Shown here in pieces: positions 9,178 to 41,078 of a stretch of DNA of 64,000 nt. Both the position numbers and the translations under genes were made by a program. Below the pieces are notes generated by a model. It was not told the origin of the DNA, searched no databases, and saw only the letters and a program-made list of their open reading frames with translations. This stretch comes from Candidatus Nomurabacteria bacterium (lineage in GTDB: Bacteria > Patescibacteriota > Minisyncoccia > Phycocordibacterales > UBA9973), in contig JAHFNS010000001.1 of the NCBI GenBank assembly GCA_023267215.1, positions 239,507 through 303,506 on the forward strand, written 5' to 3'. The number at the start of each line of letters is the position of its first letter. Position 1 is the stretch's first letter.

Positions 9178-9284
9178 CTCACCCCTTAATCCCCTCTCCA
9201 AGCAAGCTTAGAGAGGGGAAAAATACGTGAGCACCCCCTCTCTAAAATTTTAATTTTGGAGAGGGGGCAGGGGGGTGAGGAGGT
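9178..9284. repeat. GC-rich compound palindromic repeat, copy A (CCTCACCCC...CCCCTCTCC...GGAGAGGGG...GGGGTGAGG family)
   Basis: Nested inverted repeats cccctctc/gagagggg and ccccctctc/gagaggggg, bounded by cctcacccc/ggggtgagg. GC content is far above the flanks. Confidence 0.8.
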
Positions 9285-9420
9285 TGCATTTTTTAATTTT
9301 TTGTATTAATATAAACCCTAATATATTAAAAGCATGGATTTAGGGTAACCTTTCGATTTCGGTCGAAAAACCTAAGCCTTATATCCGCTTTAGGGCGGAT
9401 TTTTAATTTTAAGTAACATT

Positions 9421-10500
9421 ATGAAAAAAGAAGAAATTATAGATGAAAATTTAGTTTTAAAATCTATTGTTGATCGCAGTAAAGATAAACCAGAAGTAGA
9501 TTCACTCGTAGAAGGCCCAGTTATTTTGGTTGAAAAATCATCAGTCTTTGTTGATTTATCTCCCTTTGGAACAGGTATTATTTACGGACGTGAATTTATT
9601 AATGCTAAAGATATTATCAAAAAGATAAGCCTTGGTGATATCATCAAAGCAAAAGTTGTTGAGAAAGAAAATGAAAATGGTTATACAGAACTTTCTCTTA
9701 AAGAAGCCAAACAAGCGCTCACTTGGAGTGAAGCTGAAAAAGCTATCAAGGCAAAAACTGTCTTGGATTTGGAAATAAAAGATGCAAATAAAGGAGGACT
9801 TATCCTAGAATGGCAAGGAATACAAGGATTTTTACCAGCTTCTCAACTTAAAGCTGATCACTATCCTCGAGTACTTGATTCAGATAAAGATAAAATATTA
9901 AAAGAATTGAAAAAACTTGTAGGTGAAAAAATTTCTGTCATGATTATTTCTACTCTTCCTAAAGAAGGTAAATTAATCTTCTCAGAGAAAGATAATAATC
10001 CTGAAGAGAAAAAAGAAATATTAAGCAAATATACTGTCGGCGATGAATTGAATTGTACTGTCGCTGGACTAGTTGATTTTGGAGTATTCTTGAAATTAGA
10101 AGATGGATTGGAAGGTCTTGTGCATATTTCTGAACTTGATTGGGGTCTAGTAGATGATCCTAGAACCATGTTTAAAGTAGGAGATGCTATAAAAGCTAAA
10201 GTAATCGAAATAAAAGATGGTAAAATTTCTCTTTCAATCAAAGCTCTTAAAGAAAATCCCTGGACAGAATTCGAAGGCAAATTGAAAAAGGGTGACATTA
10301 TCAAAGGTGTTGTTATTAAATACAACAAACATGGCGCTCTTATTTCTATCAAGGAAGGAGTGGCTGGACTTGTACATAATTCAACTTTTGGTGGAGAATT
10401 AAAACTACGTGAAAAACTAGAACTTGGAAAAACTTATAATTTCCAGATTACTCTCTTTGAACCTAAAGAGCATAAGATGACTTTGATACATCTAGAATAA
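9421..10500 (+). CDS. rpsA: 30S ribosomal protein S1 (short form with several S1 domains)
   Basis: Repeated S1-domain signatures (GxV...FGxFV...GLEGLVHISEL). Confidence 0.8.
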   Translation: MKKEEIIDENLVLKSIVDRSKDKPEVDSLVEGPVILVEKSSVFVDLSPFGTGIIYGREFINAKDIIKKISLGDIIKAKVVEKENENGYTELSLKEAKQALTWSEAEKAIKAKTVLDLEIKDANKGGLILEWQGIQGFLPASQLKADHYPRVLDSDKDKILKELKKLVGEKISVMIISTLPKEGKLIFSEKDNNPEEKKEILSKYTVGDELNCTVAGLVDFGVFLKLEDGLEGLVHISELDWGLVDDPRTMFKVGDAIKAKVIEIKDGKISLSIKALKENPWTEFEGKLKKGDIIKGVVIKYNKHGALISIKEGVAGLVHNSTFGGELKLREKLELGKTYNFQITLFEPKEHKMTLIHLE

Positions 10501-10504
10501 AATA

Positions 10505-10590
10505 AAAAAGATACTTTTTTGGCATACGCAATATTAGTTTCGTGAACCATTGTCAGGTTCAAGTGCGAGCCGTGAAAAAGTATCTTTTTT
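10505..10590. terminator. Long bidirectional hairpin between convergent rpsA and the glucosaminidase gene
   Basis: AAAAAAGATACTTTTT...AAAAAGTATCTTTTTT 16-bp stem around a ~50-nt GC-richer loop, with A/T runs on both sides. Confidence 0.5.
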
Positions 10591-10594
10591 ATTT

Positions 10595-11221
10595 TTATGA
10601 AGTTATTGGTGCTGGAATAATTATATCTTCCGGACCAATGTCACTCATTATTTTCATCACTTGTTCAGCGTAACGAAGGACTATAGAAGGAGGATTGTAT
10701 GCGCGTAAAATTTGTTTGGTAGTTTTATCTGCATAATGTCTCTCAGTGTTAGGATTATTACCTCCTAAGTTTTTAGCTACTGTTTCAATAGCTTCTTCTA
10801 CAGTATCAAAACCTATCTTACAAGAACCCCATCCAAAAGGATTATTTTCTACTTTTATACAATCATTTCTACCTCCTGTAGATTCTCGAACAGCTATGGC
10901 GGGTATCAAACGCCAGTCAAGATCATTCTTTTCAGCTTCAATAACCATCTTTTCTCCTTGACCTGCTAAAGGCATACCATGATCTCTAAAATAAATATCA
11001 ATAGCATCAGCTTTTGCCTTCAGATCCTTAGCTTTTTGATCTAACTCCTGGTTAAAGGCTATTAAATCATGAGCTTCTATATTTTGTTTTTGTATAAATA
11101 CAGTTTGAACAGTATCTCTTGTAGTATTAGTTAAAATACTTCCCATTGGCACTGGAGTTCCAGCTACAAACGGTAAAAGAATAAGAGATTGAGCAAATCG
11201 TATTAAATTGTTTTTATTCAT
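10595..11221 (-). CDS. Secreted glucosaminidase-domain peptidoglycan hydrolase (FlgJ/mannosyl-glycoprotein endo-beta-N-acetylglucosaminidase-like)
   Basis: Signal peptide. AIAVRESTGGRNDCIKVENNPFGWG fits the glucosaminidase ESgwG...NN.FG motif. Confidence 0.45.
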   Translation of the reverse strand: MNKNNLIRFAQSLILLPFVAGTPVPMGSILTNTTRDTVQTVFIQKQNIEAHDLIAFNQELDQKAKDLKAKADAIDIYFRDHGMPLAGQGEKMVIEAEKNDLDWRLIPAIAVRESTGGRNDCIKVENNPFGWGSCKIGFDTVEEAIETVAKNLGGNNPNTERHYADKTTKQILRAYNPPSIVLRYAEQVMKIMSDIGPEDIIIPAPITS

Positions 11222-11474
11222 ATTTGAGCGGTATGTGCTCCGCCAACTTCATATAGCTTTTTAGCTTTTACTGAAAAATCCTTATTTAATAGTTGTTTAA
11301 CCTATTTAACAAAGACATACTTATATACTAGCATACTCCATATTAAAAGTCAATAGCAAGACATCATTTTAGTCATATGTCAAACTCAAAAAAGCTTGTA
11401 AAATAAGGATATTTTACAAGGTCACCATTGACAAATAAGGCTAAAATATGAATAATTTAGCCTCTGGGGATAAA

Positions 11475-11521
11475 AAGAAGGGCCGGCCTTCTCTGGATTT
11501 TAGAGAAAGTCGGCCCTTCTT
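11475..11521. terminator. Rho-independent terminator downstream of murC
   Basis: AAGAAGGGCCG...CGGCCCTTCTT 11-bp GC stem, followed on the minus strand by a T-run. Confidence 0.6.
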
Positions 11522-12853
11522 TTAGAATTTGAATAGTTTGTTGGCCACTTTATACGCCTCCCCGGCTCCCATTGTTACAAATACATCGTTTTCTCCAAGA
11601 TTTAGTTCCCTGATATAGGCTTCTGCTGATTCAAAGTCTGGGAAAGCCTTAGCTTTATCCCCCGCCAAGGTGATAGCAGAAGCCAGCTTCTCGCTTGAGA
11701 TACTCTCATCTTTAGCTTCTCTGGCAAAGAAAATAGGTAACAGGAAAATATTGTCTGCTCTCTTGAAACATTTAGCAAAGTCGTTAAATAGGGCTTTCGT
11801 CCTACTGTAGAGATGAGGCTGAAATAGAATTGTAATTTTTTTGGCTGGCTTGCCCTCCGAAGCTTTAGCGGAGGAGGGATAGATCTCTCGTAATGCTTCT
11901 AGGCTCGCCTTTATCTCTGTCGGATGATGAGCATAGTCATCATATACAATGGTACCTTCTTTGGTTTCCCCTCTTTTTTCCAATCTACGCCAAGTGCCAG
12001 AAAATTCGCTTAAAGCTTTCTTTGTAATTTCTTCATCAATATTTAAAAACTCTGCCACGGCCATAGCGGATGCCGCATTCATTCTGTTGTGTTCCCCTGG
12101 CACAGAAAGTTTCGGAACTTTATCTAAATATTTTGTGTAATCAATAACCTTTGCTTTATGTTCCTTTTTTAGAACATTAGAAACAGAAATACTGTTCGGG
12201 TCGCAAACTATAAAACTATCAGTTTGGTTTACCATTTCAGAAAAAGCAGATTCAATATCTTTTATATCTTTATAATAGTCCAAATGGTCTGCTTCAATAT
12301 TTGTGATAACCAAAATTTTAGGTTTTATATTTAAAAAAGATCTTTTGTATTCACAAGCTTCCACTACAAAAATATCACTTTCCCCTATTACTAAATTTGA
12401 ATTTGTTTCTTTTAGTAAAGACCCAACTATTACTGAAGGGTCTTTATCTGTATCAATTAAAATTTTTGAAATCATTGCAGTTGTTGTGGTTTTACCGTGA
12501 GTGCCAGAAACTGCTATTGTATTTTTATTTTCAGTTAAAATTCCAAGCATTTCTGGATAAGATTTTGATAATATTTTAGAATCTTTTATTTGTTTAAAAA
12601 TTTTAGAATCGTATTCTTCTATAGACCTAGTATAAACAATAAGCTCCGTATCAGCAGGTATATTTTCATAAGATTGACCTATCATAATTTTTGCTCCCAA
12701 TTTACTTAATTCATCAACCATTTTCCCCTCTTGCATATCCTGTCCAGTTACATCTTTACCCTCTGAAAGCATTAATCTGGCAACAGCTGAAATACCTATT
12801 CCCCCGATTCCAACGAAGTGTATATTTTTAATTTTTTGTAAATCTAGATTCAT
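11522..12853 (-). CDS. murC: UDP-N-acetylmuramate--L-alanine ligase
   Basis: N-terminal HFVGIGGIGISAVARLM signature and Mur-ligase central domain GTHGKTTTTAM. Confidence 0.9.
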   Translation of the reverse strand: MNLDLQKIKNIHFVGIGGIGISAVARLMLSEGKDVTGQDMQEGKMVDELSKLGAKIMIGQSYENIPADTELIVYTRSIEEYDSKIFKQIKDSKILSKSYPEMLGILTENKNTIAVSGTHGKTTTTAMISKILIDTDKDPSVIVGSLLKETNSNLVIGESDIFVVEACEYKRSFLNIKPKILVITNIEADHLDYYKDIKDIESAFSEMVNQTDSFIVCDPNSISVSNVLKKEHKAKVIDYTKYLDKVPKLSVPGEHNRMNAASAMAVAEFLNIDEEITKKALSEFSGTWRRLEKRGETKEGTIVYDDYAHHPTEIKASLEALREIYPSSAKASEGKPAKKITILFQPHLYSRTKALFNDFAKCFKRADNIFLLPIFFAREAKDESISSEKLASAITLAGDKAKAFPDFESAEAYIRELNLGENDVFVTMGAGEAYKVANKLFKF

Positions 12854-14217
12854 TTTAATTTTTTAACTATTTTCATAAACAAATCATTTCTTTCATATTC
12901 ATTATTAAATTGCCCGAAGGAGGCAAAAGCGGGAGAGAAAAGAATGACATCTCCTCGTGAGGCAAGACCTAACGCAGTTTTTACAGCTTCATTTAGATTT
13001 TTTACTTTTTTGTTTGGTATTTTTATTTTGTAATTTTTAAGTATCTTTTCTGTGCCACTGCCAGGAATAAAAACTACTGCCTTACAAAAAGTATTTACTA
13101 TATTTACAAAAAGATTCAAATCCAGATTTTTATCCGCACCGCCACAAATCAAAACTATTTTCCCTTCTTTGCCCGCTTGATAAAGAGCCTTAATGCCAGC
13201 AATAGTGGCTTCTAGCGTCGTCGCATTATTATCGTTATAAATTTTTACCCCTTTAACCATCTTTATGTATTGCAATCTTCCTTCTAACCCTTTAAATTTT
13301 TGAACCGTATTTTTTACTCTTGCTGTAGGAATATTGAAAAGTTTAGCTACTTCCACGGCGCAAGCGAGATTTTCTCTTTGATGCTCTCCAGGAACAATGA
13401 ATTTGTACCCTTCTGTTGTTTTTATATCAGCCACAATTAATTTTGATTTTATATTCTTATTTATGAGTTTTTTAACATGTGGTCGCACAATCAGATAATC
13501 TCCCTTTTTTTGATATTTAAAAATATTCGCTTTGTCGTCAAAATATTTTTCCATATTATCTTTATAATAATTCATATGGTCAGGCATGAAACTCGTAAAC
13601 ACAGCTATGTGTGGCGAAAAACCAGTATCACCAACTTGTCTGCCGAATTTTTGATGGCGGAAACCTTGCAGTTGCCAAGAATCAAGCTCGCAAATTAAAA
13701 TATCATTCTCTTTTACTTTTTTAAGAAGTGGAAGAGTTGCCACTCCTCTAACATTCCCTCCAATATATACTTTTCTTTTTAAGAATTTCTCATTTTTTTT
13801 CAGAATTTCATAGATAAGAGTCGTCACCATAGATTTACCTCTCGTCCCCGTCACACCCACTATCATCACTTCCGGTGCACATTTTGCGAAAAGCGACACA
13901 TCCATCTCTACAGGTATTTTGTTTTTTCTCGCTTCTTTTATATAAATAGAATCAAGTGGAACACCAGCAGCTTTTATAACCATGTCTCTGTTTCGAAAGT
14001 CTTCTAACCTGTGTTCTCCCAAAACAAACTTAATATCTTTATGTTTAGCCAGAGCTTTTACAGAAGTTGCCAATTGCTTTCTTGTTTTCAAATCCGTCAC
14101 GATCAAATTCGCCCCGCATTCCGCGAAAAATTTAGTGTACCCAAGCCCACGTCCCAAAAGCCCTAGCCCCATGACTGTGATTTTCTTTCCCTTAAATTGT
14201 TTTTTATAATCTTGCAT
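12850..14217 (-). CDS. murD: UDP-N-acetylmuramoylalanine--D-glutamate ligase
   Basis: N-terminal Rossmann-like KITVMGLGLLGRGLG, then GVTGTRGKS P-loop. Overlaps the murC start by 4 bp. Confidence 0.85.
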   Translation of the reverse strand: MQDYKKQFKGKKITVMGLGLLGRGLGYTKFFAECGANLIVTDLKTRKQLATSVKALAKHKDIKFVLGEHRLEDFRNRDMVIKAAGVPLDSIYIKEARKNKIPVEMDVSLFAKCAPEVMIVGVTGTRGKSMVTTLIYEILKKNEKFLKRKVYIGGNVRGVATLPLLKKVKENDILICELDSWQLQGFRHQKFGRQVGDTGFSPHIAVFTSFMPDHMNYYKDNMEKYFDDKANIFKYQKKGDYLIVRPHVKKLINKNIKSKLIVADIKTTEGYKFIVPGEHQRENLACAVEVAKLFNIPTARVKNTVQKFKGLEGRLQYIKMVKGVKIYNDNNATTLEATIAGIKALYQAGKEGKIVLICGGADKNLDLNLFVNIVNTFCKAVVFIPGSGTEKILKNYKIKIPNKKVKNLNEAVKTALGLASRGDVILFSPAFASFGQFNNEYERNDLFMKIVKKLK

Positions 14218-14264
14218 AATTTTATACTTAACACTTTCTGACGATCGTTTAAAACTGTTAACAA

Positions 14265-15551
14265 TTATTTAAATATTTTCTTAAACTCTTCTATATCATC
14301 AAAATGCGACTTCACTCCTTTTATTTCTTGATAATCTTCATGCCCTTTACCAGCACAAAGAATCACATCTCCTTTGTTTGCTAATTCCACAGATTGCTCT
14401 ATGGCCAAGCGACGATCCACAATAGTTATCACTTTCTTATTTTCTTCGTGAGTCAAATCCCCTTTCATGTCATCAATTATTTTATCAGGGTTTTCACTCC
14501 TCGGATTGTCGGAAGTAAAAATGGCAATGTCTGACAAATCTGCTCCTATCTTCCCCATTTTAGAACGTTTTGATTTATCACGATCACCACCACAACCAAA
14601 AACAGAGATAATCCTTCCCGCCTCGGGCTTAATTTCTTTCACAGCTAAAAGAATTTTTTCCAACGCATCTGGCGAGTGAGCATAATCTACAACAACTAAG
14701 ACGCCTTCTCTAGAAGTGAAATGTTCAAATCTTCCTCTTGGAGGCTGTATTCTCTCTAAAACCTTATTAACCTTCCCCATATCAAAAAAAAGAAGTTTGG
14801 AAGCGCCCCAAACAGCAAGCAAATTGTAAGCATTAAATTTTCCTAAAAGTTTTGAATTTACTTTTTCTCCATTGAAATCAAGTTCTAGTCCATTAAAATC
14901 TGATTTTAAAATTTTGCCATAAAAGTTTTCTTCCCCAAAGACGGTCTTCGGGGAGTTTCCCCGAAGACCGTCTTTGGGGAATTCTATAAAACCATAAAAG
15001 AACTTTTCTGCCTTAATGTCATCAAGCATTCCATTACCATAATCATCATCCATATTTGAGAGAGCAAAAGCAGTCCTAGGCAACATTTCAAAAAATTTCT
15101 TTTTAGCCTTGAAATAATTTTCAAAATCTCTGTGGTAATCCAAATGGTCGTGCGTTAGATTAGTGAAAATTCCACCAGTGAAATTTATCCCCGTTACCCT
15201 ATTTTGATCGAGTGCATGAGAAGAAACCTCCATAAATACATATTCACAGCCTTTTTCTACCATTTCCTTAAAAATCTTCGTCAAAGAAACAGAATCTGGG
15301 GTGGTAGCCGGGATTGGTTTATTAGAGTTTAATTGTAACTTTTCTTTCCCTACCAATATTTCTACAGTACTAATAAGTCCAGCCTTGTAGCCCAATTCTA
15401 TTGCTACTTCATATAAAAGAGTCGCTGTCGTCGTCTTGCCATTTGTCCCCGTCACGCCAATTATCTTTAATTTTCTAGATGGGTTTCCATAACGAATTCT
15501 CGCTACAAAAAGTTTCCCCGCCCACCATATATTTTTTAATTTCTTTAACAT
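14265..15551 (-). CDS. murE: UDP-N-acetylmuramoyl-L-alanyl-D-glutamate--2,6-diaminopimelate (or L-Lys) ligase
   Basis: IIGVTGTNGKTTT P-loop and the MurE-specific DNPR motif (FTSDNPRSENP). Confidence 0.85.
   Translation of the reverse strand: MLKKLKNIWWAGKLFVARIRYGNPSRKLKIIGVTGTNGKTTTATLLYEVAIELGYKAGLISTVEILVGKEKLQLNSNKPIPATTPDSVSLTKIFKEMVEKGCEYVFMEVSSHALDQNRVTGINFTGGIFTNLTHDHLDYHRDFENYFKAKKKFFEMLPRTAFALSNMDDDYGNGMLDDIKAEKFFYGFIEFPKDGLRGNSPKTVFGEENFYGKILKSDFNGLELDFNGEKVNSKLLGKFNAYNLLAVWGASKLLFFDMGKVNKVLERIQPPRGRFEHFTSREGVLVVVDYAHSPDALEKILLAVKEIKPEAGRIISVFGCGGDRDKSKRSKMGKIGADLSDIAIFTSDNPRSENPDKIIDDMKGDLTHEENKKVITIVDRRLAIEQSVELANKGDVILCAGKGHEDYQEIKGVKSHFDDIEEFKKIFK
14931..14981. repeat. 51-bp perfect GC-rich hairpin embedded in-frame in murE
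   Basis: TTCCCCAAAGACGGTCTTCGGGGA-GTT-TCCCCGAAGACCGTCTTTGGGGAA: 24-bp perfect stem with a 3-nt loop. Total length 51 nt, i.e. 17 codons. Confidence 0.85.
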
Positions 15552-15552
15552 A

Positions 15553-15765
15553 TTATTTCATTTTTTTAAATCTATCAACTTTCTTCCCATCCACAACAGT
15601 TTTTTCTAAAAATATCTTGAGTGGTCTTATCCACAATCCTTTTTCTCCATAAAGTGCTTTATAAACAACAAAATCTTCCAGGGTTTCGCTATGCTTAGCT
15701 ACTCCAATCACCTTATATTTTCCTCCCTTGAAATGTTTATATTTCCCAAGTTCTACCTTTTTCAT
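15553..15765 (-). CDS. DUF1653-domain protein
   Basis: YKHFKGGKYKVIGVAKHSETLEDFVVYKALYGEKGLWIRPLKIF matches the conserved DUF1653 core. Confidence 0.6.
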   Translation of the reverse strand: MKKVELGKYKHFKGGKYKVIGVAKHSETLEDFVVYKALYGEKGLWIRPLKIFLEKTVVDGKKVDRFKKMK

Positions 15766-15813
15766 AAATTTTATAAACTTCTTAACCTAACATATATATT
15801 AGACTAATAATTT

Positions 15814-18730: not shown

Positions 18731-18765
18731 AAATCTGCAAAAATATTTTTGCAGATTTTTTATTT
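18731..18765. terminator. Bidirectional rho-independent terminator downstream of ddl
   Basis: AAAAAATCTGCAAAAATATTTTTGCAGATTTTTT: perfect hairpin flanked by A and T runs. Confidence 0.6.
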
Positions 18766-18868
18766 TATTATTTTCATTTGAAGCGGGTGATGGCGAAACT
18801 CCAACATATGTGCCTATGTGAGTGCGATCACCCGCTACAGATAAAAATAATTTGATAGTTAAATTATA

Positions 18869-19741: not shown

Positions 19742-19800
19742 CTAAATATTATAACACAGCTCAGCATTCTCCAGATTACATTTCATAATTAATCTTTTAG

Positions 19801-19850
19801 GCACCTCACCCCCTTACCCCCTCTCCAGATTACTGGCGAGGGGGTTTCGT
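19801..19850. repeat. GC-rich palindromic repeat, partial copy B
   Basis: GCACCTCACCCCCTTACCCCCTCTCC...GAGGGGG, immediately upstream of the DUF559 gene. Confidence 0.7.
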
Positions 19851-19864: not shown

Positions 19865-20218
19865 GTGACTCAATTTAAAACAATAATTAAAACTATATAT
19901 CTAAGAAAAAAAGAAACAAAAGCAGAAAAAATACTCTGGCAGGAATTAAGAAATAGCAATCTTGGTATAAAGTTTAGAAGACAATATCCTATTGATATGT
20001 ATATTCTTGATTTTTATGCACCTAAAATAAGACTTTCTATAGAACTTGATGGTTCTATCCATAAGCTAAAAGAAACTAAAGAATATGACGTAGAAAGAAG
20101 AATGTATTTAGAATCTAAATATATTTATGAATTAAGGTTTTGGAATTCTGAAATAGAGAATAATTTAAATTCAGTTTTAAACAAAATTAAAACAAAAATT
20201 AAAGAATTACATCACTAA
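19865..20218 (+). CDS. DUF559 (Vsr-like / PD-(D/E)xK endonuclease-like) domain protein
   Basis: TKAEKILWQELRN...GIKFRRQYPI..YILDFY...LSIELDGSIH...D.ERR..L...G..ELRFWNSEI matches the DUF559 consensus almost position by position. Confidence 0.75.
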   Translation: MTQFKTIIKTIYLRKKETKAEKILWQELRNSNLGIKFRRQYPIDMYILDFYAPKIRLSIELDGSIHKLKETKEYDVERRMYLESKYIYELRFWNSEIENNLNSVLNKIKTKIKELHH

Positions 20219-20220: not shown

Positions 20221-20347
20221 TGCACCTCACCCCTTCCCCGCTCCATTTTAATAAAATGGAGCGGGGTTGATGCGAAGCAGACGGGGTGAGGTGCATTTTT
20301 CTCCCCTCTCTGGTACTCCGGAGAGGGGGCAGGGGGTGAGGTGTATT
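20221..20347. repeat. GC-rich palindromic repeat, double copy C
   Basis: First, the 75-nt near-perfect palindrome TGCACCTCACCCC-TTCCCCGCTCC...GGAGCGGGG...GGGGTGAGGTGCA. Then CTCCCCTCTC...GGAGAGGGGGCAGGGGGTGAGGTG. Confidence 0.8.
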
Positions 20348-20979: not shown

Positions 20980-22600
<1,621 letters not shown>

Positions 22601-27033: not shown

Positions 27034-27079
27034 CCACCTCTCCTTGTAAAGGAGAGGGGGCTAGGGGGTGAGGTGAATT
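27034..27079. repeat. GC-rich palindromic repeat, partial copy E
   Basis: CCACCTCTCCTTGTAAAGGAGAGGGGGCTAGGGGGTGAGGTG. Preceded at 26974-27010 by the hairpin CCCCCTTGTCAGGGGG plus a T-run. Confidence 0.7.
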
Positions 27080-32243: not shown

Positions 32244-32246
32244 AAT

Positions 32247-33575: not shown

Positions 33576-33618
33576 ATTGGGTATGATTTTAAATAAAAAA
33601 ATTATTGATAATATAAAA

Positions 33619-34059
33619 TTATATATGTCTTTTCTTATTTAGCAAGTGGCTTTTATATATATTTTGTTTATATGGCTTCAAACGTTTAATTTTTATTAAA
33701 AAGTTATTATTTTTTAAGTCTTTTCTTAGCTCCTTTACATATGCCTTCTGATCATAACCTAAAGCAATTATATTTGGTTTTTCTTTTTTAATATGAAAAA
33801 AATAATTTTTCAAACTACCTAAAACCACCTTATCAACCAACTTACTTTTTTTTACTAAATTCGTTCTTTTCTTTTCATTTAAAAATGGCTTTACGCCTTT
33901 TATTCTTTTAACATTCTTGTCTCTAGCTATAGATACGATTAAAAATGAATTTTGGTGCAATTTTTTTGCTTGTTTAAAAAAATTTAAGTGACCTTCGTGT
34001 AATCCATCAAAAGTACCAAAAATCATTATTTTCGTTTGTTCGTTATTTCTATTTAACAT
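33619..34059 (-). CDS. Cytidylyltransferase-like nucleotidyltransferase (HIGH-motif family; FMN adenylyltransferase/TagD-like)
   Basis: MIFGTFDGLHEGH is a (H/T)xGH nucleotidyltransferase motif. Confidence 0.5.
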   Translation of the reverse strand: MLNRNNEQTKIMIFGTFDGLHEGHLNFFKQAKKLHQNSFLIVSIARDKNVKRIKGVKPFLNEKKRTNLVKKSKLVDKVVLGSLKNYFFHIKKEKPNIIALGYDQKAYVKELRKDLKNNNFLIKIKRLKPYKQNIYKSHLLNKKRHI

Positions 34060-34149
34060 TGTTTTATTATAACAATTTTGTTATCCACAGTAAAAATTGA
34101 CAGATACTAGAGAAAGCATAAAATGAAAGAGTTCATTAAAAAGTTATAG

Positions 34150-34288
34150 TAAGTGATTGGGGAAACTGGTTAGATTCCAGTACAGTGCCGCTACGGTAAG
34201 TCCTGAACACCAATAGGTGGAAGGAACAAGTCCGATTACCAATCATTTTTATGAATCCCGAGCAGGACTAAGCCATTTTGAAGGCCCA
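34150..34288 (+). promoter_or_regulatory. Cobalamin (B12) riboswitch aptamer
   Basis: GGGAAACTGGTTAGATTCCAGTACAGTGCCGCTACGGTAAGTCC...GGAAGGAAC parallels the cobalamin-riboswitch core GGGAAnCCGGTGAAAATCCGGnnCnGnCCCGCCACTGTAA...GGAAGG, including a variant B12 box (GCCGCTACGG). Confidence 0.7.
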
Positions 34289-34316
34289 AAATTCTGCTCA
34301 AGCAGAATTTTTTCGT
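34289..34316 (+). terminator. Riboswitch expression-platform terminator
   Basis: AAAATTCTGCTCAAGCAGAATTTTTTCG: 8-bp stem plus T-run, immediately before the ATG at 34320. Confidence 0.65.
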
Positions 34317-34319
34317 TTT

Positions 34320-34763
34320 ATGCAAGATAAAAACAACAAAAAAGTAATATGGTTCGGTCTTATTGTTTCTATTTTTTTCTTTCTAATTTTTATTTTCACA
34401 AAAGATCTTGGACAAAATACCACAAACAGGCAAGGCCTGTTAGAACAAGTCTTGCCTGGTGCTATTGAAACAGATCAAGCATTTCTAGAAATCAATGAGA
34501 AAAAAATTGGGACAAAAATAATAAAAAATGAAAATATTTATGATTTCATGCAAGAATTACAAAAAGAAAGAAAAATAAACTTCAAAGATACAACTTATAT
34601 CGGAATGGGAAAATTAATTGAAGAGATAAACGGAATTAAAAACAGTGGAGAAAGAAATTGGATTTATTATGTGAATGATGTTGAAGCACAAGTCGGTGTT
34701 TCAAATTATAAATTAAAAGTTGGAGACGTGGTGTCTTGGAAATATGAGCAAACAAATCATTAA
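34320..34763 (+). CDS. Membrane-anchored DUF4430-like protein (transcobalamin/intrinsic-factor beta-domain-like)
   Basis: N-terminal TM. C-terminal NWIYYVNDVEAQVGVSNYKLKVGDVVSWKYE resembles the DUF4430 W.y.vNg...G...y.lk.GD.i.w.y motif. Confidence 0.45.
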   Translation: MQDKNNKKVIWFGLIVSIFFFLIFIFTKDLGQNTTNRQGLLEQVLPGAIETDQAFLEINEKKIGTKIIKNENIYDFMQELQKERKINFKDTTYIGMGKLIEEINGIKNSGERNWIYYVNDVEAQVGVSNYKLKVGDVVSWKYEQTNH

Positions 34764-36309
34764 AATAATATTATTAAGTTTTATATCTCTTGGTTTTTTC
34801 AGTACTGTTTATGCAGATACTCCAATACATTTAAAGATAGCTACTCCAACAAATATAATTTATGATAAAGATATAACCGTCACCCCTTGTGATAGTGATA
34901 ATAATCCTCTAACCCCAGATATCATCACAGCCTACTGTGCAATCCTACAATCTGAAATATCAAATATCTGGGACTGGAGTTGGGCTCCTGGTGCATTCGT
35001 CACTTCTATAAATAATATTTCTGGTTTTACAAGCAAAGACAGAAACAATAATGATGTTTATCATTATTGGAGTTGGACTTTAAATGGAACAGAGGGGGCC
35101 ACTGGATTAAATCAATATACTTTACAGCCAAATGATTTAATTTCTCTTAATTTTATAGATCCAATAGATCTAACTCCTATCGTTTCAGCTGGTTCTCCAC
35201 AAATTGTCTCCCCAGAAATTAGTGCTACCCCCACCGCACTAGAACCAACAAGGGTACCAGTATCTACGCCTATAAAAATAAAACCTATATTTGATACAAA
35301 AAAGGCTTCTGATTTTATAGTATCACAACAAAAGGAGGATGGAACTTGGGGAAATGATCTTTACACAGACTGGATAGCTATCTCTCTGGCTTCTTTGAAA
35401 AAAGAAGATCAAAAAATAAATCCAATTATAGAATTAATAAAATATTTATCTTTAAATAAAATTTCTAGCACACTTTTAACCGATCATGAAAGACATACTA
35501 TGGCTCTATCAGCTCTCGGACTTAATCCATACAACATCAATGGAGAAAATTATATAAAAAAAATAACAGATAGTTTCGATGGGAAACAATTTGGTGATAT
35601 TGATAAAGATAATGATGATATTTTTGCTTTGATTGTTTTACAAAATGCTGGTTTTACTAAAGATGAAGATATTATTAAAAATGATATCTCTTACATATTA
35701 TCAAAACAAAAAGAAAATGGTTCTTGGGATAATAGTGTAGATATGACAGGAGCTGCTATGGAGTCTCTTTCTATATTTAGTAAACAAGACCCCTTCCTAA
35801 CCTCCCCCTTAGCAGAGGGAGGAACAATTCCAAATGCTATTAGTAAAGCAAAAGAGTATTTAAAACAAAACCAAAAAGATGATGGCGGTTTTGGCAATGT
35901 TTCTTCCACCTCTTGGGCTATAGAAGGTATCTTATCTCTCGGAGAAAAAGCAGAAGATTGGATAAAAAATGAACAATCCCCTATTGATTATTTAGCGACT
36001 ATGCAAAATGAAGATGGGAGTGTAAAAGAAGATAATTTAGACAACAAAATCTGGCAAACATCTTATGCTCTTTCAGCATTATCAGGGAAAACTTGGAATG
36101 AATTAATGCAAAAATTTGAAAAACCAAAAGAAATATTAGAAGAAAAAATAATTAAAAAATATACTCCAAAAATAAAAAACTCAAAAATTCAAAATAATGC
36201 AAACACCATAAATTCCATAATTAATTCTCCAATAAACACAGAAAAAGAAACAGCTCCTATAAAAAAGAGCTGGTTCAAAAACTTTTTAAATAAATTATTT
36301 GGAATTTAA
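34720..36309 (+). CDS. Secreted protein: DUF4430-like beta domain plus alpha/alpha-toroid domain (terpene-cyclase/prenyltransferase-like QxxDGxW repeats)
   Basis: Signal/TM segment. N-terminal domain with WSWTLNGTEGATGLNQYTLQPNDLISLNF (DUF4430-like). Then four repeats of the type QKEDGTWGND / QKENGSWDNS / QKDDGGFGNV / QNEDGSVKED. Confidence 0.5.
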   Translation: METWCLGNMSKQIIKIILLSFISLGFFSTVYADTPIHLKIATPTNIIYDKDITVTPCDSDNNPLTPDIITAYCAILQSEISNIWDWSWAPGAFVTSINNISGFTSKDRNNNDVYHYWSWTLNGTEGATGLNQYTLQPNDLISLNFIDPIDLTPIVSAGSPQIVSPEISATPTALEPTRVPVSTPIKIKPIFDTKKASDFIVSQQKEDGTWGNDLYTDWIAISLASLKKEDQKINPIIELIKYLSLNKISSTLLTDHERHTMALSALGLNPYNINGENYIKKITDSFDGKQFGDIDKDNDDIFALIVLQNAGFTKDEDIIKNDISYILSKQKENGSWDNSVDMTGAAMESLSIFSKQDPFLTSPLAEGGTIPNAISKAKEYLKQNQKDDGGFGNVSSTSWAIEGILSLGEKAEDWIKNEQSPIDYLATMQNEDGSVKEDNLDNKIWQTSYALSALSGKTWNELMQKFEKPKEILEEKIIKKYTPKIKNSKIQNNANTINSIINSPINTEKETAPIKKSWFKNFLNKLFGI

Positions 36310-36692
36310 AACAAAGACAAAATCCAAGGTGATGGGATAGCTAATAACATAAGGACTGCTCCTAAAAGAGCCATATTCTTTTTGAAATTTATTTCTTCCC
36401 CCATTCTTGTCATTTGATCAGAAACTTTCCAATATTGATGCATTTGTATAGATGTCACAAACAAGAAAACTGCAAGCAAGAGAACAGAAAGCTCAATATA
36501 AACTCCTAAAAGTATCCCCAAACCACCAATAATCATCATAAGACCCGTTAAAGACACAGCCAAACTTGGCATTGGTACTTTTTTAGATTGAGCATAGCCA
36601 GTCAACATTTTTAGATTTTTGAGATGACTAAAACCACTCAATATAAAATATCCCCCTAATAATATCCTTCCTAAAATAAATAAATATTCCAT
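36306..36692 (-). CDS. DoxX-family membrane protein
   Basis: 128 aa, four TM helices. LGRILLGGYFILSGFSHL matches the DoxX N-terminal signature. Confidence 0.65.
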   Translation of the reverse strand: MEYLFILGRILLGGYFILSGFSHLKNLKMLTGYAQSKKVPMPSLAVSLTGLMMIIGGLGILLGVYIELSVLLLAVFLFVTSIQMHQYWKVSDQMTRMGEEINFKKNMALLGAVLMLLAIPSPWILSLF

Positions 36693-36758
36693 ATACTTTT
36701 AAATCTCAGCCTGCGGCTGATCCGCCCTAGGCGGCAAATTAGATTAATAAGATTTATA

Positions 36759-37385
36759 TTATACTATTTTTCTTCTAGGAGACGCAAATTCCTCAATTTT
36801 ACCTATTTTTATTTCTATTTTGTCTACTTTTCTTAAATTTTTGATAGTTGTTTTTGATAAAATATCATAATGCTTTATATTATCTAATTCTTGATCTATT
36901 CCCCAAAGATCACCATCTTCCACCTCCCATCCCTTTTTGAATACATTTAAATTAAGAGGTTTAGAATAACTTCTTAATGTTTTTAATCCATTATCTAAAA
37001 AATATTCGTGAAAATAAGACATTACAAGTTCATGTATACTTTTATATACTGGTTCACGATATCTAAGCACTGCATGATTAGTTTTTGATAATGCACCCCA
37101 ATATCCTTTTATCTTAAATGGAGCCACTACGTGGTCATAATCCCCTTTGGTCGTCTTTAAATGAAGCACAAGAGGCGGAAAACCATGTAAAGAAAGAATA
37201 TAAGCACCCAAAATAGCTCCTTCAATACAATGGGCATTTTTTGCTCTTAAGGTTGAAATAGGAGATTTCAATGTTTCACCTTTTTCCTCAAAATTAAACT
37301 TTAAACTATTCAAAAAGTCCTGCACCTTCGGTGGTGTATTTAATTTATGCAATAATTCTTTTTCTTTTTCAGTAAAACAAAGCAT
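36759..37385 (-). CDS. Hypothetical protein (conserved Cys/His pair, possibly papain-like fold)
   Basis: 208 aa. NAHCIEGAILGAY ... DHVVAPF. No family assigned. Confidence 0.3.
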   Translation of the reverse strand: MLCFTEKEKELLHKLNTPPKVQDFLNSLKFNFEEKGETLKSPISTLRAKNAHCIEGAILGAYILSLHGFPPLVLHLKTTKGDYDHVVAPFKIKGYWGALSKTNHAVLRYREPVYKSIHELVMSYFHEYFLDNGLKTLRSYSKPLNLNVFKKGWEVEDGDLWGIDQELDNIKHYDILSKTTIKNLRKVDKIEIKIGKIEEFASPRRKIV

Positions 37386-37598
37386 TTATATACCGAGCTC
37401 ACTACCACTTAAGGCACTTGTATAATTACTTAAAAATGATGGCAAAACAAACATTAATCCTATAAGGGGTATAACTACAGCAATTACTGTAATCCAAATT
37501 GTCATTAAAAAATATTTTCTGGTTTTTTCTACCGACTTATAAATAGCATCTATCTTTACTCCTTGCTCTTCTATTTTTTGTTTTAATTCTTGATCCAT
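37386..37598 (-). CDS. Small two-TM membrane protein (hypothetical)
   Basis: 70 aa. Plausible from hydrophobicity only. Confidence 0.3.
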   Translation of the reverse strand: MDQELKQKIEEQGVKIDAIYKSVEKTRKYFLMTIWITVIAVVIPLIGLMFVLPSFLSNYTSALSGSELGI

Positions 37599-37630
37599 GA
37601 TTTAATCATATCACAAACTAATTAAAAAAT

Positions 37631-38185
37631 TTATAAATTTTCTTTCTTGTAAAAGTAAGCAACCAACAAAAGAGTAATGAGAGCAAAAAATACTGTTAAA
37701 GAAAACATCGGAATAGAAATATATCCTCCGACTTCATCCACAAATTTTTGAACACAAGAAATACCAGAAGCATCACAAGCACCTACGCTTTCTGTAAAAT
37801 AATAAATAAAATTATGATAAAGTGAGATCAACAAACCTGAGAGGAGAAGTGGAAAAATATAACCTGTCACGTTCCTATCCTTTTTTAAATAGGCCATACC
37901 AAAAAGCACTGTCTGGGGAAATAAAAATATTCTTTGTAGCCAACACAAAAAGCATACAGCATAACCCGCCACTTCAGAATAGAAAAGTGACAAAACAGCG
38001 GTAAAAAATGAAATAATAAATCCGATTAACAAAAAATGTTCTGAAACAAAAGAAAGAAATTCATTTTTAAAACTGTTTTTATTAGGAACTGCAAAAAGAA
38101 GGATCAAAGTAAAAACACACAAGAATTGTAACGTAATTGCAAAGACACCGAGAATTAAATTAAGATAATGTATATATGTCATCAA
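37631..38185 (-). CDS. dsbB: Disulfide bond formation protein B (DsbB/BdbC family)
   Basis: Four TM helices. CFLCWLQR (the Cx2C-W-QR motif of BdbC/DsbB) and a second Cys pair (GACDASGISC). Confidence 0.6.
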   Translation of the reverse strand: MMTYIHYLNLILGVFAITLQFLCVFTLILLFAVPNKNSFKNEFLSFVSEHFLLIGFIISFFTAVLSLFYSEVAGYAVCFLCWLQRIFLFPQTVLFGMAYLKKDRNVTGYIFPLLLSGLLISLYHNFIYYFTESVGACDASGISCVQKFVDEVGGYISIPMFSLTVFFALITLLLVAYFYKKENL

Positions 38186-38565
38186 AAGATTTTAGGTAAA
38201 AAAATAATAAATCCGATAATCACAGCTGTAAAGGCAGCTACCAAAACAGCAGCTGCAGCGACATCTTTGGTGTCTCGAGCAAAAGGATGATACTCTGGAG
38301 AGGTTAAATCTATATCTATCTCAATGGCTGTATTTATTGTCTCAGTTATTATAACTAATCCAATAGAAAAAATTAAAGCAATCCATTCAAGACTTGAAAT
38401 TTTTAAATAAAATCCTAAAATTATCACAACTAGTGCCACAAATATATGAAAATATAAATTTTTGGTCGTTCTACCAAAAACGTATAAACCACGAAAGGCA
38501 TTCAAAAATTTCTCACTTTTTTTAACTTCTCTCCAAGCTCTTATTTCTCTTTTAGAATCTGACAT
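38182..38565 (-). CDS. dgkA: Diacylglycerol/undecaprenol kinase (DgkA family)
   Basis: 127 aa, three TM helices. ETINTAIEIDID matches the DgkA E.lNTAiE motif. Confidence 0.7.
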   Translation of the reverse strand: MSDSKREIRAWREVKKSEKFLNAFRGLYVFGRTTKNLYFHIFVALVVIILGFYLKISSLEWIALIFSIGLVIITETINTAIEIDIDLTSPEYHPFARDTKDVAAAAVLVAAFTAVIIGFIIFLPKIF

Positions 38566-38582
38566 TTTATTTTTTATGATTT

Positions 38583-39212
38583 TTAATTTTTACTACGCCA
38601 CAAATCAATAAACCAAAAAATATGTTTAGTACTTTTTTCTAATAAATTAAATAAAATAGCGAGTGTGAATAGCAAGATAGCGAGACTAATACTGAAAAAC
38701 GATACAAAGATAGCAATAGCGGCAGCTACTACAGGAAATAAAATATGCATGTTGGCATGTTCATTCTCTTTCTTGGTAAATGATGTATTTTCAATAGTTT
38801 TAGAATTGATGATATACTGACGCATTTTAAATAAAGTGAAACCAATGAAGATAATATTCAAAGCAAAAAATATGATGGCTATCTGTGAATAACTGTATCT
38901 ACCGAGAAGATGTGAAGAAAATGGAACCAACCCTACGAAAAAGAAAAAGATGGCATTCAAGTTAGAAAATTTGGTATCAATATTTTTTGCTAAAATTGAT
39001 TCAATAAAATGATGCGAGCGCCAATAAGTAAAAAGCAGAGAAAAACTTAAAAGATAACTCAAAAATACTGGCAAAAGATTTATTAATGAATTTAAAAGTG
39101 TTTGTTCGTTTATTATCCCAACATAGTCTGGTATCCTTATTTCAAAAACCAAAATAGTCATTACTATGGCAAATATACTATCTGCTAATTGATCCAATCG
39201 TATTTGTTTCAT
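38583..39212 (-). CDS. DUF1211 (TMEM175-like) membrane protein
   Basis: N-terminal RLDQLADSIFAIVMTILVFEI matches the RxxxFSDgVFAIaiTLLvlei signature. Confidence 0.6.
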   Translation of the reverse strand: MKQIRLDQLADSIFAIVMTILVFEIRIPDYVGIINEQTLLNSLINLLPVFLSYLLSFSLLFTYWRSHHFIESILAKNIDTKFSNLNAIFFFFVGLVPFSSHLLGRYSYSQIAIIFFALNIIFIGFTLFKMRQYIINSKTIENTSFTKKENEHANMHILFPVVAAAIAIFVSFFSISLAILLFTLAILFNLLEKSTKHIFWFIDLWRSKN

Positions 39213-39242
39213 GGGTTTTATTATACTATAAAAATAAAAGCG

Positions 39243-39617
39243 TTAATTAGCTGGTAATACACAACCACTTATTTTTGCTAAATTATCCAATTCTTGTTCT
39301 CCAACATATTTTTGCCCTTTTTCATCTATCCAAGTTGGATAACTCTCTACTCCTTTGGCGATACATTCATCTGATTTTTCTGTACATTCAACGTAAGGCA
39401 CATATTTAAAAGAATCTCCGAAACGTTCTTTTTGTGCTTTACAGTGAGAACACCAAGAAGCACCATACATCGTCAAATTTTTTGAAGCGAGACATTGCGC
39501 AAAAGTATCATATTTACCAAGTGGAACATTTCCTCCTCCACCTTGTAATAAAACAGTCGCGACTGTGCCTAAAACCAAGAGAACAATTACTAAAAAGAAA
39601 ATATTTTTTTGTTTCAT
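39243..39617 (-). CDS. Secreted thioredoxin-fold thiol-disulfide oxidoreductase
   Basis: Signal peptide plus thioredoxin-type CxxC active site (MYGASWCSHCKAQK). Confidence 0.65.
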   Translation of the reverse strand: MKQKNIFFLVIVLLVLGTVATVLLQGGGGNVPLGKYDTFAQCLASKNLTMYGASWCSHCKAQKERFGDSFKYVPYVECTEKSDECIAKGVESYPTWIDEKGQKYVGEQELDNLAKISGCVLPAN

Positions 39618-39623
39618 ATAATT

Positions 39624-40130
39624 TTATTCTTTACAACAATCTACTAATTTAGCCATAATATCATCATAAGTCATTGGTTTTTCATTCTCCAAAACATTTT
39701 TGATATGAGGCGCGCTGATAATTTTTAACCTAAGTCCAAAAAACAAATTAAAAATTTTGTAAGCAAAAGTAAACATTTGCTTTGCATCTTCTGTTTTGCC
39801 ATCACCTTGTAATTTTGTACCAACTTCCATGAGTCTCATCGTGGTGCCTAATAAATGCTTGGAAATACACCAACTTTCCGCTTCTGTTTTGTCTATCATT
39901 CGAGCCAAAAGTACTTTTCTCATTTCACGCACTTCATGCAACATATCATAATATTCATCTTTACCAGTTTTCGCACCAGAAAAAAAGAAATGCTCTTCCA
40001 AGCTTATCAAATTCATCACTGCTATACTTAAATCTTCTTCAGTTGATAAATCTACTCCCCTATTTTCTTTGAGAGTTGCTATCTTTTTTTGGAGTTCTTC
40101 AAAACTCATTAATTTTGGATCAGTTGTCAT
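39624..40130 (-). CDS. Hypothetical protein
   Basis: 168 aa, no recognisable motif. Sits between the thioredoxin-like and CcdA genes. Confidence 0.3.
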   Translation of the reverse strand: MTTDPKLMSFEELQKKIATLKENRGVDLSTEEDLSIAVMNLISLEEHFFFSGAKTGKDEYYDMLHEVREMRKVLLARMIDKTEAESWCISKHLLGTTMRLMEVGTKLQGDGKTEDAKQMFTFAYKIFNLFFGLRLKIISAPHIKNVLENEKPMTYDDIMAKLVDCCKE

Positions 40131-40245
40131 AATGTTTTGTTCCCAAGTTTGCTAAGATTTGCTTTTTATAAGGTCCTCGGTTCTCTGGGTCCCCTACCCC
40201 AGCCAGACCATTCTAAAAAGTAAATCTTAGCAAACTTTTATAAAT

Positions 40246-40956
40246 TTATAATGTAAATATAATAATACCAAAAGCAAGCAAAATAAGCGACAAGACTACT
40301 CTTGCTCTCTTGGTTTCCAGTCTTCGTAACCTATCAATTTTTTCTGCCATAGCTTTATTAGTAGCAAAAATAAGTATAAGAATAAGAGGTAAAACAAAGA
40401 AAAGATTGTAAGCAATCAAATACCAAAACCCTGTCCAATAAGTGGCGTAATCATGAAGCAATGTCAAAACAAAAAGATATGGACCTCCGGTGCATGGAAA
40501 TTCAAACATCGCAACAAGAGCACCTAATAAAAAAAAAGCTGGAATAGAGCCCTTGCTGATTATCTTTGCAAGCGTTTTATGAGAGCTTTCTGGCATTTTC
40601 AATTTGATTGGGAAGCTTGGAAAGAATTCATTTATTAAATTAATTACAGCATAAATTATCAATATGGATGCTCCTATCTTCCCCATCACATTAGGTACAC
40701 TAAAAGCACCGAGGACTCGAAGAGCTCCCAACCCCACTAAAGTATAAATGAAGACAATTGCAAAGATATAAACACCTCCAGAAATTAAAACAAATTTCCT
40801 GTTTTTACCGAGGCTGAATAAAAAAGTGATAGTTAAAAAAAGGACGGATATAGCACAAGGATTTAAACTATCTATAATTGCCGAAGTCATAATGACTGGC
40901 AAAAAACTATGAATGCTAGTGGCTAAAGCGGGAGACATGTGGCTATAATAGCACAA
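40246..40956 (-). CDS. ccdA: Cytochrome c-type biogenesis / thiol-disulfide electron-transport membrane protein CcdA (DsbD family)
   Basis: Six TM helices with two conserved Cys motifs: SLNPCAISV, and the second conserved Cys in FEFPCTGGPY. Confidence 0.8.
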   Translation of the reverse strand: MCYYSHMSPALATSIHSFLPVIMTSAIIDSLNPCAISVLFLTITFLFSLGKNRKFVLISGGVYIFAIVFIYTLVGLGALRVLGAFSVPNVMGKIGASILIIYAVINLINEFFPSFPIKLKMPESSHKTLAKIISKGSIPAFFLLGALVAMFEFPCTGGPYLFVLTLLHDYATYWTGFWYLIAYNLFFVLPLILILIFATNKAMAEKIDRLRRLETKRARVVLSLILLAFGIIIFTL

Positions 40957-41009
40957 AAAAATTTCAAAAACAAAAACTTCAAAAATGTTAAAAGCCGAGC
41001 TTTTAACAT

Positions 41010-41078
41010 TACCTCACCCCAGCTTGCTAGCTTTCCCCTCTCCTTATTAAGGAGAGGGGTCAGGGGTGAGGTGAATTT
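41010..41078. repeat. GC-rich palindromic repeat, copy F
   Basis: ACCTCACCCC-AGCTTGCTAGCTT-TCCCCTCTCCTTATTAAGGAGAGGGGTCAGGGGTGAGGTG. Confidence 0.8.

Follow-up and report, generated by a model that had tools for sequence, protein, structure and literature searches.

The stretch analyzed here (the window) is 64 kb of DNA from a Candidatus Nomurabacteria bacterium (contig JAHFNS010000001.1, positions 239,507 to 303,506), and its main subject is a family of GC-rich repeats that brackets a small nuclease gene and reaches into the neighboring 16S rRNA gene. The analysis itself placed the source, a metagenome-assembled bacterium, near Nomurabacteria/Paceibacteria. The nuclease gene (19865–20218, plus strand) has a GTG start and encodes a 117-aa DUF559 protein, a Vsr-like PD-(D/E)xK endonuclease (Pfam PF04480, E = 9e-30). 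The protein also matches PDB entry 3hrl, described as an ‘endonuclease-like protein’ (E = 1e-15), and residues D49, E60, D62 and H66 are invariant in an alignment of 1111 homologues. The 16S rRNA gene, a full-length Rfam match, lies on the minus strand at 20982–22599. Repeat copies, designated E1 to E6, occur at six loci, all of which an earlier sequence-only reading had placed correctly.

Two block sequences mark the family. GGGGTGAGG has 11 exact matches in the 64 kb against an expected 0.12, and GGAGAGGGG has 9 against an expected 0.09; every match lies inside the six loci, and no shuffle reached the observed count of either block. The copies are 51–62% GC, close to the 60% that the sequence-only reading had given, and most flanks are 23–33%, close to its figure of roughly 30%; the flanks of the 16S copy are the exception, at 48%. 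The same reading had called the inner cores of the 16S copy (E4) and the 41-kb copy (E6) nearly identical, and 38 of 40 positions agree. Folded as DNA, each copy is far more stable than shuffled sequence: full copies have z-scores between −7 and −11, half copies between −3.5 and −4, counting Watson–Crick pairing only. No RNA family described in Rfam covers the units.

Alignment of the copies resolves a common unit. An optional lead-in, (G)YATTTTT, is followed by CCCCTCTCC, a loop of 7–14 nt, GGAGAGGGG, a further 3–5 nt, and a third block, GGGGTGAGGTG. This third block is the purine block reversed, with one A changed to T, and reads GGGGTGAGG in the E4-type core. Judged from sequence, such a mirror block is the signature of a purine-motif intrastrand triplex, in which G would lie opposite G, and A opposite A or T. 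A detector requiring a pyrimidine block, its reverse complement and then a block mirroring the purine block returned seven family units and one diverged candidate from the window, and zero units across 20 shuffles of it. In total the window holds eight units, namely five on the plus strand (TM(+)), two on the minus strand (TM(−)) and one variant (E3a), and contains one inverted pair (E1). All copies are intergenic, in both orientations, except E4, which sits within the 16S gene.

A unit may stand by itself, be paired with an inverted partner or gain one additional outer arm; outer arms of 9–13 bp are present. Inverted pairing generates an outer CCTCACCCC/GGGGTGAGG palindrome, so the compound palindromes first described do capture an outer look that comes from inverted and closed-up units; the third block, however, is a mirror repeat and not a palindrome arm. 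The copies at 19801–19850 and 27034–27079 are single units rather than full palindromes. What the sequence-only reading had overlooked is the mirror nature of the third block, the position of one copy within the 16S gene, and the fact that the class to which the family belongs has already been described.

The individual copies differ in layout and context. E1 (9177–9280) is a gene-less inverted pair, TM(−) at 9177–9219 and TM(+) at 9235–9280, 15 bp apart, between a divergent Lactamase_B_3-like gene and an S1 protein gene. E2 (19801–19850, minus strand) is a single TM(−), CACCTCACCCCC-TTA-CCCCCTCTCC-AGATTACT-GGCGAGGGGG, lying upstream of the DUF559 start at a distance of about 60 bp; in its minus-strand hairpin the recurrent G.A mismatch appears, set within TCGCC/GGAGA. 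On the downstream side of the gene, the region 20221–20347, first read as a double copy, does contain two elements, more precisely a four-block variant and then a single unit. The variant, E3a (20221–20295), combines an outer stem, TGCACCTCACCCC/GGGGTGAGGTGCA, with an inner hairpin, CCCCGCTCC/GGAGCGGGG; its spacer of 16 nt, TTGATGCGAAGCAGAC, includes GCGAAGC, a sequence known to form a DNA mini-hairpin of unusual stability. The folding energy of E3a is −35.6 kcal/mol (z = −11.2). The single unit, E3b (20296–20345, plus strand), is a TM(+), CATTTTTCT-CCCCTCTCT-GGTACTCC-GGAGAGGGGG-CAG-GGGGTGAGGTG, and forms with E2 an inverted bracket that encloses the DUF559 gene.

The E3a variant and its spacer recur near DUF559 genes at two related loci (L002 and L022), and the spacer (20266–20282 in the window) is conserved among the three as T(T/G)GATGCGAAGCAGAC. 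At L022 the DUF559 start codon falls within the right arm of the E3a-type element. E4 (21361–21430, plus strand) is a four-block copy made of CCTCACCCC, a mini-hairpin and the TM(+) CCCCTCTCC-TTATTAA-GGAGAGGGG-TTA-GGGGTGAGG. E5 (27034–27079, plus strand) is a single TM(+) between divergent genes, and E6 (41010–41078, plus strand) repeats the four-block layout of E4 between two minus-strand genes. The diverged candidate (35789–35822, minus strand), a possible TM-like unit of uncertain family membership, reads CCTCCCTC-TGCTAA-GGGGGAGG-TTA-GGAAGGGG and lies inside an open reading frame (ORF) at 34720–36309. It is in frame in the encoded cobalamin-binding/terpenoid-cyclase-like protein, contributes the residues ...PLPNLPLSRGRN..., and could be an in-frame insertion or chance.

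By its block structure, the window family is a member of the BoxC/PIT/TM class of intrastrand triplex motifs. Earlier work on these repeats is reportedly that of Bachellier in the 1990s and of Hoyne and Maher in 2000. The Escherichia coli member, TMECO, was first named BoxC and later the PIT element, and has the sequence CCCTCTCCC-loop-GGGAGAGGG-TTA/CCG-GGGTGAGGG (Holder et al. 2015, PMC4666352). Strain MG1655 carries 23 copies, including five inverted pairs, and related G/C-rich motifs occur in over 260 genomes; a single strand of the E. coli repeat folds into a triplex in vitro, as circular dichroism and nuclear magnetic resonance data show (PMC4666352). TMECO showed neither promoter nor terminator activity, its sites undergo more local rearrangement than control sites, and no association was found either with mobile elements or with a particular kind of flanking gene (PMC4666352).

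The likeness between the two families extends over several features. Both have three blocks (pyrimidine, complementary purine and mirror purine-type), and GGAGAGGGG-TTA-GGGGTGAGG in E4 is close in sequence to GGGAGAGGG-TTA-GGGTGAGGG in E. coli; both are multi-copy, lie in both orientations, often form inverted pairs and are tied to local rearrangements; and the G.A hairpin mismatch in TCGCC/GGAGA equals that of the E. coli ‘mm’ types. The window family differs in its host, an AT-rich bacterium belonging to the candidate phyla radiation (CPR), in a first loop of 7–14 nt where E. coli has 3–5 nt, and in four-block forms with an extra outer arm. One of its copies is inside a 16S rRNA gene, a contrast with TMECO, which is described as confined to intergenic DNA, and the window units bracket a DUF559 nuclease gene, a link that the published work does not report. 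The published ITxF database search was set to 1–6 nt for both loops, which is a search setting and not a biological definition; with a first loop of 7–14 nt and a second of 3–5 nt, the window units fall outside it, and the search would miss them.

The association with DUF559 extends well beyond the window. An inverted unit pair brackets a stand-alone DUF559 gene of about 115 aa in most loci examined, across at least seven phyla, and gene-less pairs and solo units are scattered elsewhere. The association set comprised the 80 best tblastn DUF559 loci in species-representative genomes (41–87% identity), drawn from Patescibacteria, Chloroflexota, Verrucomicrobiota, Bacteroidota, Pseudomonadota, Planctomycetota and Thermodesulfobacteriota/Geobacteraceae; with the replicons of cultured organisms the count rises from at least seven phyla to nine. 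A unit lies within 300 bp of the gene at 74 of the 80 loci, and unit density is 2.25 per kb within that distance as compared with 0.097 per kb in the remaining flanks. Where both flanks are complete, 63 of 68 DUF559 genes (93%) have a unit within 300 bp, against 23 of 286 control ORFs (8%) from the same loci. Units on both sides were seen at 47 of the 68 genes and at none of the 286 controls, and 43 of 51 flanking pairs are inverted. Flanking inverted repeats fit the published finding that DUF559 genes are 14-fold enriched among predicted targets of programmed inversion (PMC9881135).

Block sequences change with lineage (GGAGAGGGG/GGGGTGAGG, GGGGGAGGG/GGGTGGGGG, GGGAGAGG/GGTGAGGG, GGGGAAGGG/GGGGATGGGG), and the hairpin and mirror block are always kept. 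When pyrimidine/purine hairpins near DUF559 genes were collected strand by strand with no mirror required, 136 of 356 had a perfect mirror block, against 43 with a perfect direct repeat in its place. Half of these hairpins are perfect, the commonest mismatches are T.G (35) and G.A (25), and 23 of the 25 G.A mismatches stand in the TCGCC/GGAGA context. Finished replicons of cultured bacteria show the same arrangement, with units beside the DUF559 gene in 7 of 12 (Neisseria, Synechocystis twice, Deinococcus, Azospirillum, Photobacterium and Methylobacterium). Tandem arrays also occur: 14 units lie downstream of DUF559 in Photobacterium (L362, 1850–3294) and 6 in Neisseria gonorrhoeae (L355, 1975–2669), and a viral-labelled contig in IMG/VR (3300020057_000061; L274, 1730–2870) has unit arrays with a period of about 72 nt. 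The exact window motif is present in more than 120 IMG/VR stretches.

E. coli K-12 has both components side by side. TM #9 lies about 170 bp downstream of ycjD, its DUF559 gene, a TM-like hairpin spans the ycjD stop codon, and the truncated 3′ end of a second DUF559 gene sits between ycjD and TM #9. In this region (NC_000913.3, 1351039–1351830), the interval from TM #9 to ycjD includes about 45 nt that duplicate the 3′ end of ycjD (L001, ~2320–2370 and ~2425–2475). The stop codon of the DUF559 gene also falls within a unit hairpin at two further loci, L016 and L026. Across E. coli, the interval between fabI and sapF holds either ycjD with TM #9, the K-12 form found in 3346 of 5426 genomes, or the eefRABCD efflux operon (PMC12817139). 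Strains lacking ycjD, such as TCM3e1, have the eef operon in this interval and no unit at the junction, a difference that bears on turnover of the locus rather than on mechanism. Our literature search, in which coverage of subscription journals was incomplete, returned no paper linking DUF559 or ycjD to BoxC, PIT or triplex repeats. The cross-phylum association with DUF559 and the presence of a family member in a 16S expansion segment both appear to be new.

Among relatives, both the units and the DUF559 gene have been precisely gained or lost. The site orthologous to E1 carries DUF559 in eight of these relatives (L005, L012, L014, L016, L020, L022, L023 and L026); E1 is thus gene-less where these relatives hold the gene, as expected of a miniature inverted-repeat transposable element (MITE) formed by internal deletion of a gene-bearing element. 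At L016 a TM(+) copy stands on each side of DUF559, and positions 9235–9280 of the window align to both, as would be expected if gain or loss took place across a pair of direct repeats. The site at which the window itself has DUF559, next to the 16S gene, is common to L002 and L003 only. Downstream of the gene, the window has both E3a and E3b, L002 only the E3a type and L003 only the E3b type, and these differences in unit sets coincide with unit boundaries.

E5 coincides exactly with the right boundary of a 4.3-kb segment (about 22.7–27.08 kb) that is missing in L003. Its genes are for a 938-aa PKD/dockerin/peptidoglycan-binding protein and for a deoxyhypusine-synthase-like protein, and in L003, without this segment, the region upstream of the 16S gene passes directly into the region of an SBP_bac_5 gene. 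The orthologous loci of relatives, then, do not all carry the units but are polymorphic at unit boundaries. This turnover, together with a candidate partner gene of the family's own, supports the earlier suggestion of a MITE/REP-like family that would be mobile or recombination-prone.

The gene and its repeats also share a distribution across distant hosts. DUF559 proteins of a Betaproteobacterium and a member of the Xanthomonadales are 95% identical, a Chloroflexus copy shows 81% identity and a Geobacteraceae copy 72%, and all four loci have the same GGGGGAGGG/GGGGGGAGG repeat types. This sharing of repeat types among similar DUF559 proteins from different phyla indicates that gene and repeats move together. 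Units also occur away from the gene: in Patescibacteria loci, unit density more than 1 kb from DUF559 is 0.126 per kb, and it is 0.125 per kb in the window, as compared with 0.012 per kb in 489 kb of related contigs bearing 16S genes.

The 16S copy belongs to an expanded helix 40 (21339–21453, minus strand). Judged against the Rfam consensus, the loop of this helix has a 103-nt insertion, in which an AU-rich extension stem bears E4 at its tip, and as RNA the region folds into one continuous, lengthened helix (−78.5 kcal/mol, z = −11). Scanning metagenomes with an anchor specific to the 16S of this lineage gave 80 loci, 74 of them measurable, and the distance between the anchors flanking helix 40 in these 74 related genes ranges from 41 to 204 nt, which makes the helix a hypervariable expansion segment. 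Versions of the repeat stand on the window's base stem at 4 of the 74 loci (L140, L138, L092 and L145). Six of 51 pairs in the stem show double compensatory changes, and several pairs are G:U, valid in the rRNA sense only. A repeat on a common stem with compensatory changes points to an insert that was inherited in a small clade and constrained as RNA. E4 is absent from L003, whose 16S is 91% identical; L003 and L040 have other sequence at this position. An assembly artifact was ruled out, since related but diverged versions, showing compensatory changes, come from four metagenome contigs that are independent of one another. At L092 a DUF559 gene lies 1.7 kb away, flanked by hairpins and GGGGTGAA/TTCACCCC arms. 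In E4, a unit landed and was tolerated at the tip of a hypervariable helix-40 expansion, where it just lengthens an RNA hairpin.

Helix 40 inserts at related loci (L082–L161; for example L098, L111, L120, L135, L108 and L095) are often long hairpins of short tandem repeats, with AATTACGAATTATCAATTACGAAT paired to ATTCGTAATTCGTAATT or with CTAGGCTTTAGGCTTTAGC-type arms. The window's 16S has GCAGGAGCGG in place of the GCAGCCGCGG found in most bacteria, at the 515 primer site. No 23S, 5S or tRNA gene lies within the 64 kb. The 3′ end of the 16S reads ...GGAAUAAUUCAAUU, without the CCUCC anti-Shine-Dalgarno motif, and this motif has been lost in part of the Parcubacteria (PMC9297842). Insertions of at least 100 bases occur in 42% of CPR 16S genes (Tsurumaki et al. 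2022, PMC9297842). Like rRNA intervening sequences and such CPR insertions, E4 adds sequence at a conserved helix tip, on a long stem that varies among relatives; it differs from them in that it belongs to a dispersed repeat family and is neither an intron nor an ORF for a homing endonuclease.

A genuine REP/RAYT system lies in the same window and offers a direct comparison. It spans 4186–5824. Perfect copies of GTCAAGGATGCCCCTTGAC, inverted relative to each other, stand at the two ends of a Y1_Tnp gene (4200–4847), one at 4186 and one at 4847, and past the following gene there is another, at 5806. That this RAYT, an IS200-like Y1 transposase, mobilized the GC-rich family as its REP or REPIN would account for the presence of both in one window; we give that idea almost no credence, because the RAYT has its own unrelated REP in three perfect copies, and the GGGGTGAGG family never flanks the RAYT but stands beside DUF559 at 74 of the 80 loci, the majority with no known RAYT close by. 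An identity as RAYT-mobilized REP is accordingly ruled out, and the distinction drawn in the sequence-only reading between this family and the RAYT-associated REP stands, now with DUF559 as a candidate partner on the other side.

In layout, the two systems are closely alike. Both have short, structured, palindromic repeats dispersed in intergenic DNA, inverted copies that flank one small nuclease-type gene (for DUF559, 47 of 68 genes flanked on both sides and 43 of 51 pairs inverted), and a repeat sequence that co-varies with gene lineage; the pair at 4186–5824 shows the same arrangement within the window itself. They differ in the partner, a PF04480 PD-(D/E)xK protein rather than an HUH Y1 transposase (PF01797), and in the repeat, whose triplex type has a third, mirror block. 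MITEs such as Correia elements, Rickettsia palindromic elements and the cyanobacterial Nezha share the terminal inverted repeats and strong fold-back, the resemblance of gene-less E1 to an internal deletion of a gene-bearing unit, and insertion into tolerant sites that include structured RNA or coding regions. The family differs from them in having no DDE transposase partner and in its basic unit, a half-element that also occurs solo; moreover, no target-site duplication was seen. DUF559 further shares its fold and family with Vsr and the EDxHD enzyme I-Bth0305I (PF04480; PDB 3hrl). Vsr is specific for the T.G mismatch, and unit hairpins often carry T.G or G.A. The DUF559 gene differs in being free-standing, outside any intron or intein and not beside a cytosine methyltransferase.

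Motif class, bracket and mechanism taken together, the DUF559 nuclease and the repeats probably form a REP/RAYT-like partnership, a reading in which we have moderate confidence. In the mechanism we propose, DUF559 would recognize the folded unit on single-stranded or supercoiled DNA, a fold in which a hairpin, its stem frequently bearing a conserved mismatch (G.A or T.G), is joined by a third strand. It would nick the DNA at this folded unit, after which units would be copied, deleted or converted by the repair or recombination machinery of the host. Inverted pairs that lack the gene, E1 among them, would be the MITE-like deletion form of a gene-bearing cassette. A broader proposal is more tentative, and we place its chances slightly short of even: YcjD-type DUF559 proteins may be the missing partner of BoxC/PIT/TM repeats across bacteria, a PD-(D/E)xK enzyme reading a hairpin plus third strand and traveling with the repeats as a cross-phylum package that also seeds rRNA segments.

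Several observations weigh against this partnership. We know of no biochemical link between DUF559 and the repeats and of no cleavage/joining or integration chemistry for the DUF559 fold; to our knowledge a PD-(D/E)xK nuclease cuts DNA and cannot integrate it alone. Units went undetected at 6 of the 80 loci and at 5 of the 12 loci from cultured organisms, and 28 of 31 distant DUF559 genes (29–40% identity, in viral contigs of 71% GC) had no unit nearby. That last result rules out a link with units as a general property of all DUF559 genes. With units at 3 of these 31, the link is specific to one subfamily and not absolute, nor is it a by-product of GC, since so few units in contigs of 71% GC mean that the detector is not triggered merely by GC-rich DNA. 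No target-site duplications were seen at the cassette flanks in the window, L002 and L003, with few empty sites for comparison. The contigs of low unit density were sampled irrespective of the DUF559 status of their genomes. In E. coli, the in vivo triplex was not detected and strains mostly share the loci at which the repeats are fixed (PMC4666352), and among the strains listed a query of the ycjD region, including TM #9, gave similar numbers of matches with and without ycjD. Fixed repeats and a number of matches that is similar without ycjD suggest that any activity there is old or rare.

The strongest rival makes DUF559 a free-standing homing-endonuclease gene that inserts at pre-existing units, the units having spread otherwise, by slippage, recombination or conversion via non-B DNA; we judge it unlikely, yet deserving of real weight. 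The DUF559/Vsr fold includes a proven homing endonuclease family, EDxHD, with I-Bth0305I (cited in PMC9403480 and PMC3424549). Insertion of this kind would also suit L016, where the gene adjoins a complete E1-like pair between two direct TM(+) copies, K-12, where the truncated second DUF559 3′ end by ycjD and TM #9 looks like the trace of repeated insertion, and the replacement of eefRABCD by ycjD between fabI and sapF in at least two independent E. coli lineages (PMC12817139). It leaves unexplained, however, both the origin and spread of a three-block mirror repeat and the roughly tenfold rarity of units in related genomes sampled irrespective of DUF559, and a change of repeat type along with the DUF559 clade is compatible with dependence running either way. 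Homing and the REP/RAYT-like partnership are not yet distinguishable from these data, and in both DUF559 and the repeats are functional partners.

The remaining explanations do without such a partner. The units could be structural or regulatory DNA or RNA elements of the host, serving mRNA stability, insulation or as recombination hot spots, with DUF559 merely one affected gene. The position of E5 at a synteny break and the tie of E. coli units to local genome instability (PMC4666352) suit this account, and stop codons within the unit hairpin (L016, L026, ycjD) could mean expression control. It is nevertheless improbable, given the 93% of DUF559 genes against 8% of control ORFs near a unit, the both-sided units at DUF559 only, the joint crossing of phyla by gene and repeat type, and the E. 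coli units' lack of promoter or terminator activity or of a shared function among flanking genes (PMC4666352). Independent intrinsic terminators or attenuators, made alike by convergence on GC-rich stems, would fit such stems and the intergenic position of most copies. Yet none of the 18 terminator-like sites in the 9–28 kb region overlaps a unit, no T-tract follows the stem, E1 and E5 separate divergent genes, and E4 falls within the 16S gene; a shared origin is indicated by the mirror third block together with the 38 of 40 matching core positions. We find this last account scarcely credible, and missing T-tracts, the terminator scan and unsuitable contexts rule terminators out, as the sequence-only reading had argued.

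Other features of the window stand apart from the repeat family. A defense-island-like region spans 51491–63665 and includes a Hachiman-like pair of HamA (54076–55005) and a helicase (51491–54079), two N6_N4 methyltransferase genes (56148–58167), and a T5orf172 gene (60506–61105) directly preceded by a LOOT RNA match (61157–61276, 85 bits). A cobalamin riboswitch at 34125–34261 (34 bits, barely above the gathering score) lies upstream of DUF4430/cobalamin-binding-like ORFs (34278–36309). In a Mur-ligase-like ORF (14265–15551), positions 14931–14981 form an inverted repeat that is perfect over 24 nt and has 3 nt between its arms (TTCCCCAAAGACGGTCTTCGGGGA / TCCCCGAAGACCGTCTTTGGGGAA); its sequence is unrelated to the triplex-type family.

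BoxC/PIT/TM repeats, described in E. coli as early as the 1990s, occur in hundreds of genomes, without a function, a partner or a route of spread having been found. Their cross-phylum bracket around one nuclease gene offers a concrete hypothesis, testable in E. coli K-12, where ycjD coexists with 23 repeat copies. A functional link, if there is one, would define a new class of nuclease–repeat partnership beside REP/RAYT, give the uncharacterized DUF559 family a role, and provide a natural example of a protein that reads triplex-prone DNA. Some of the puzzling insertions in CPR rRNA genes would then derive from dispersed genomic repeats.

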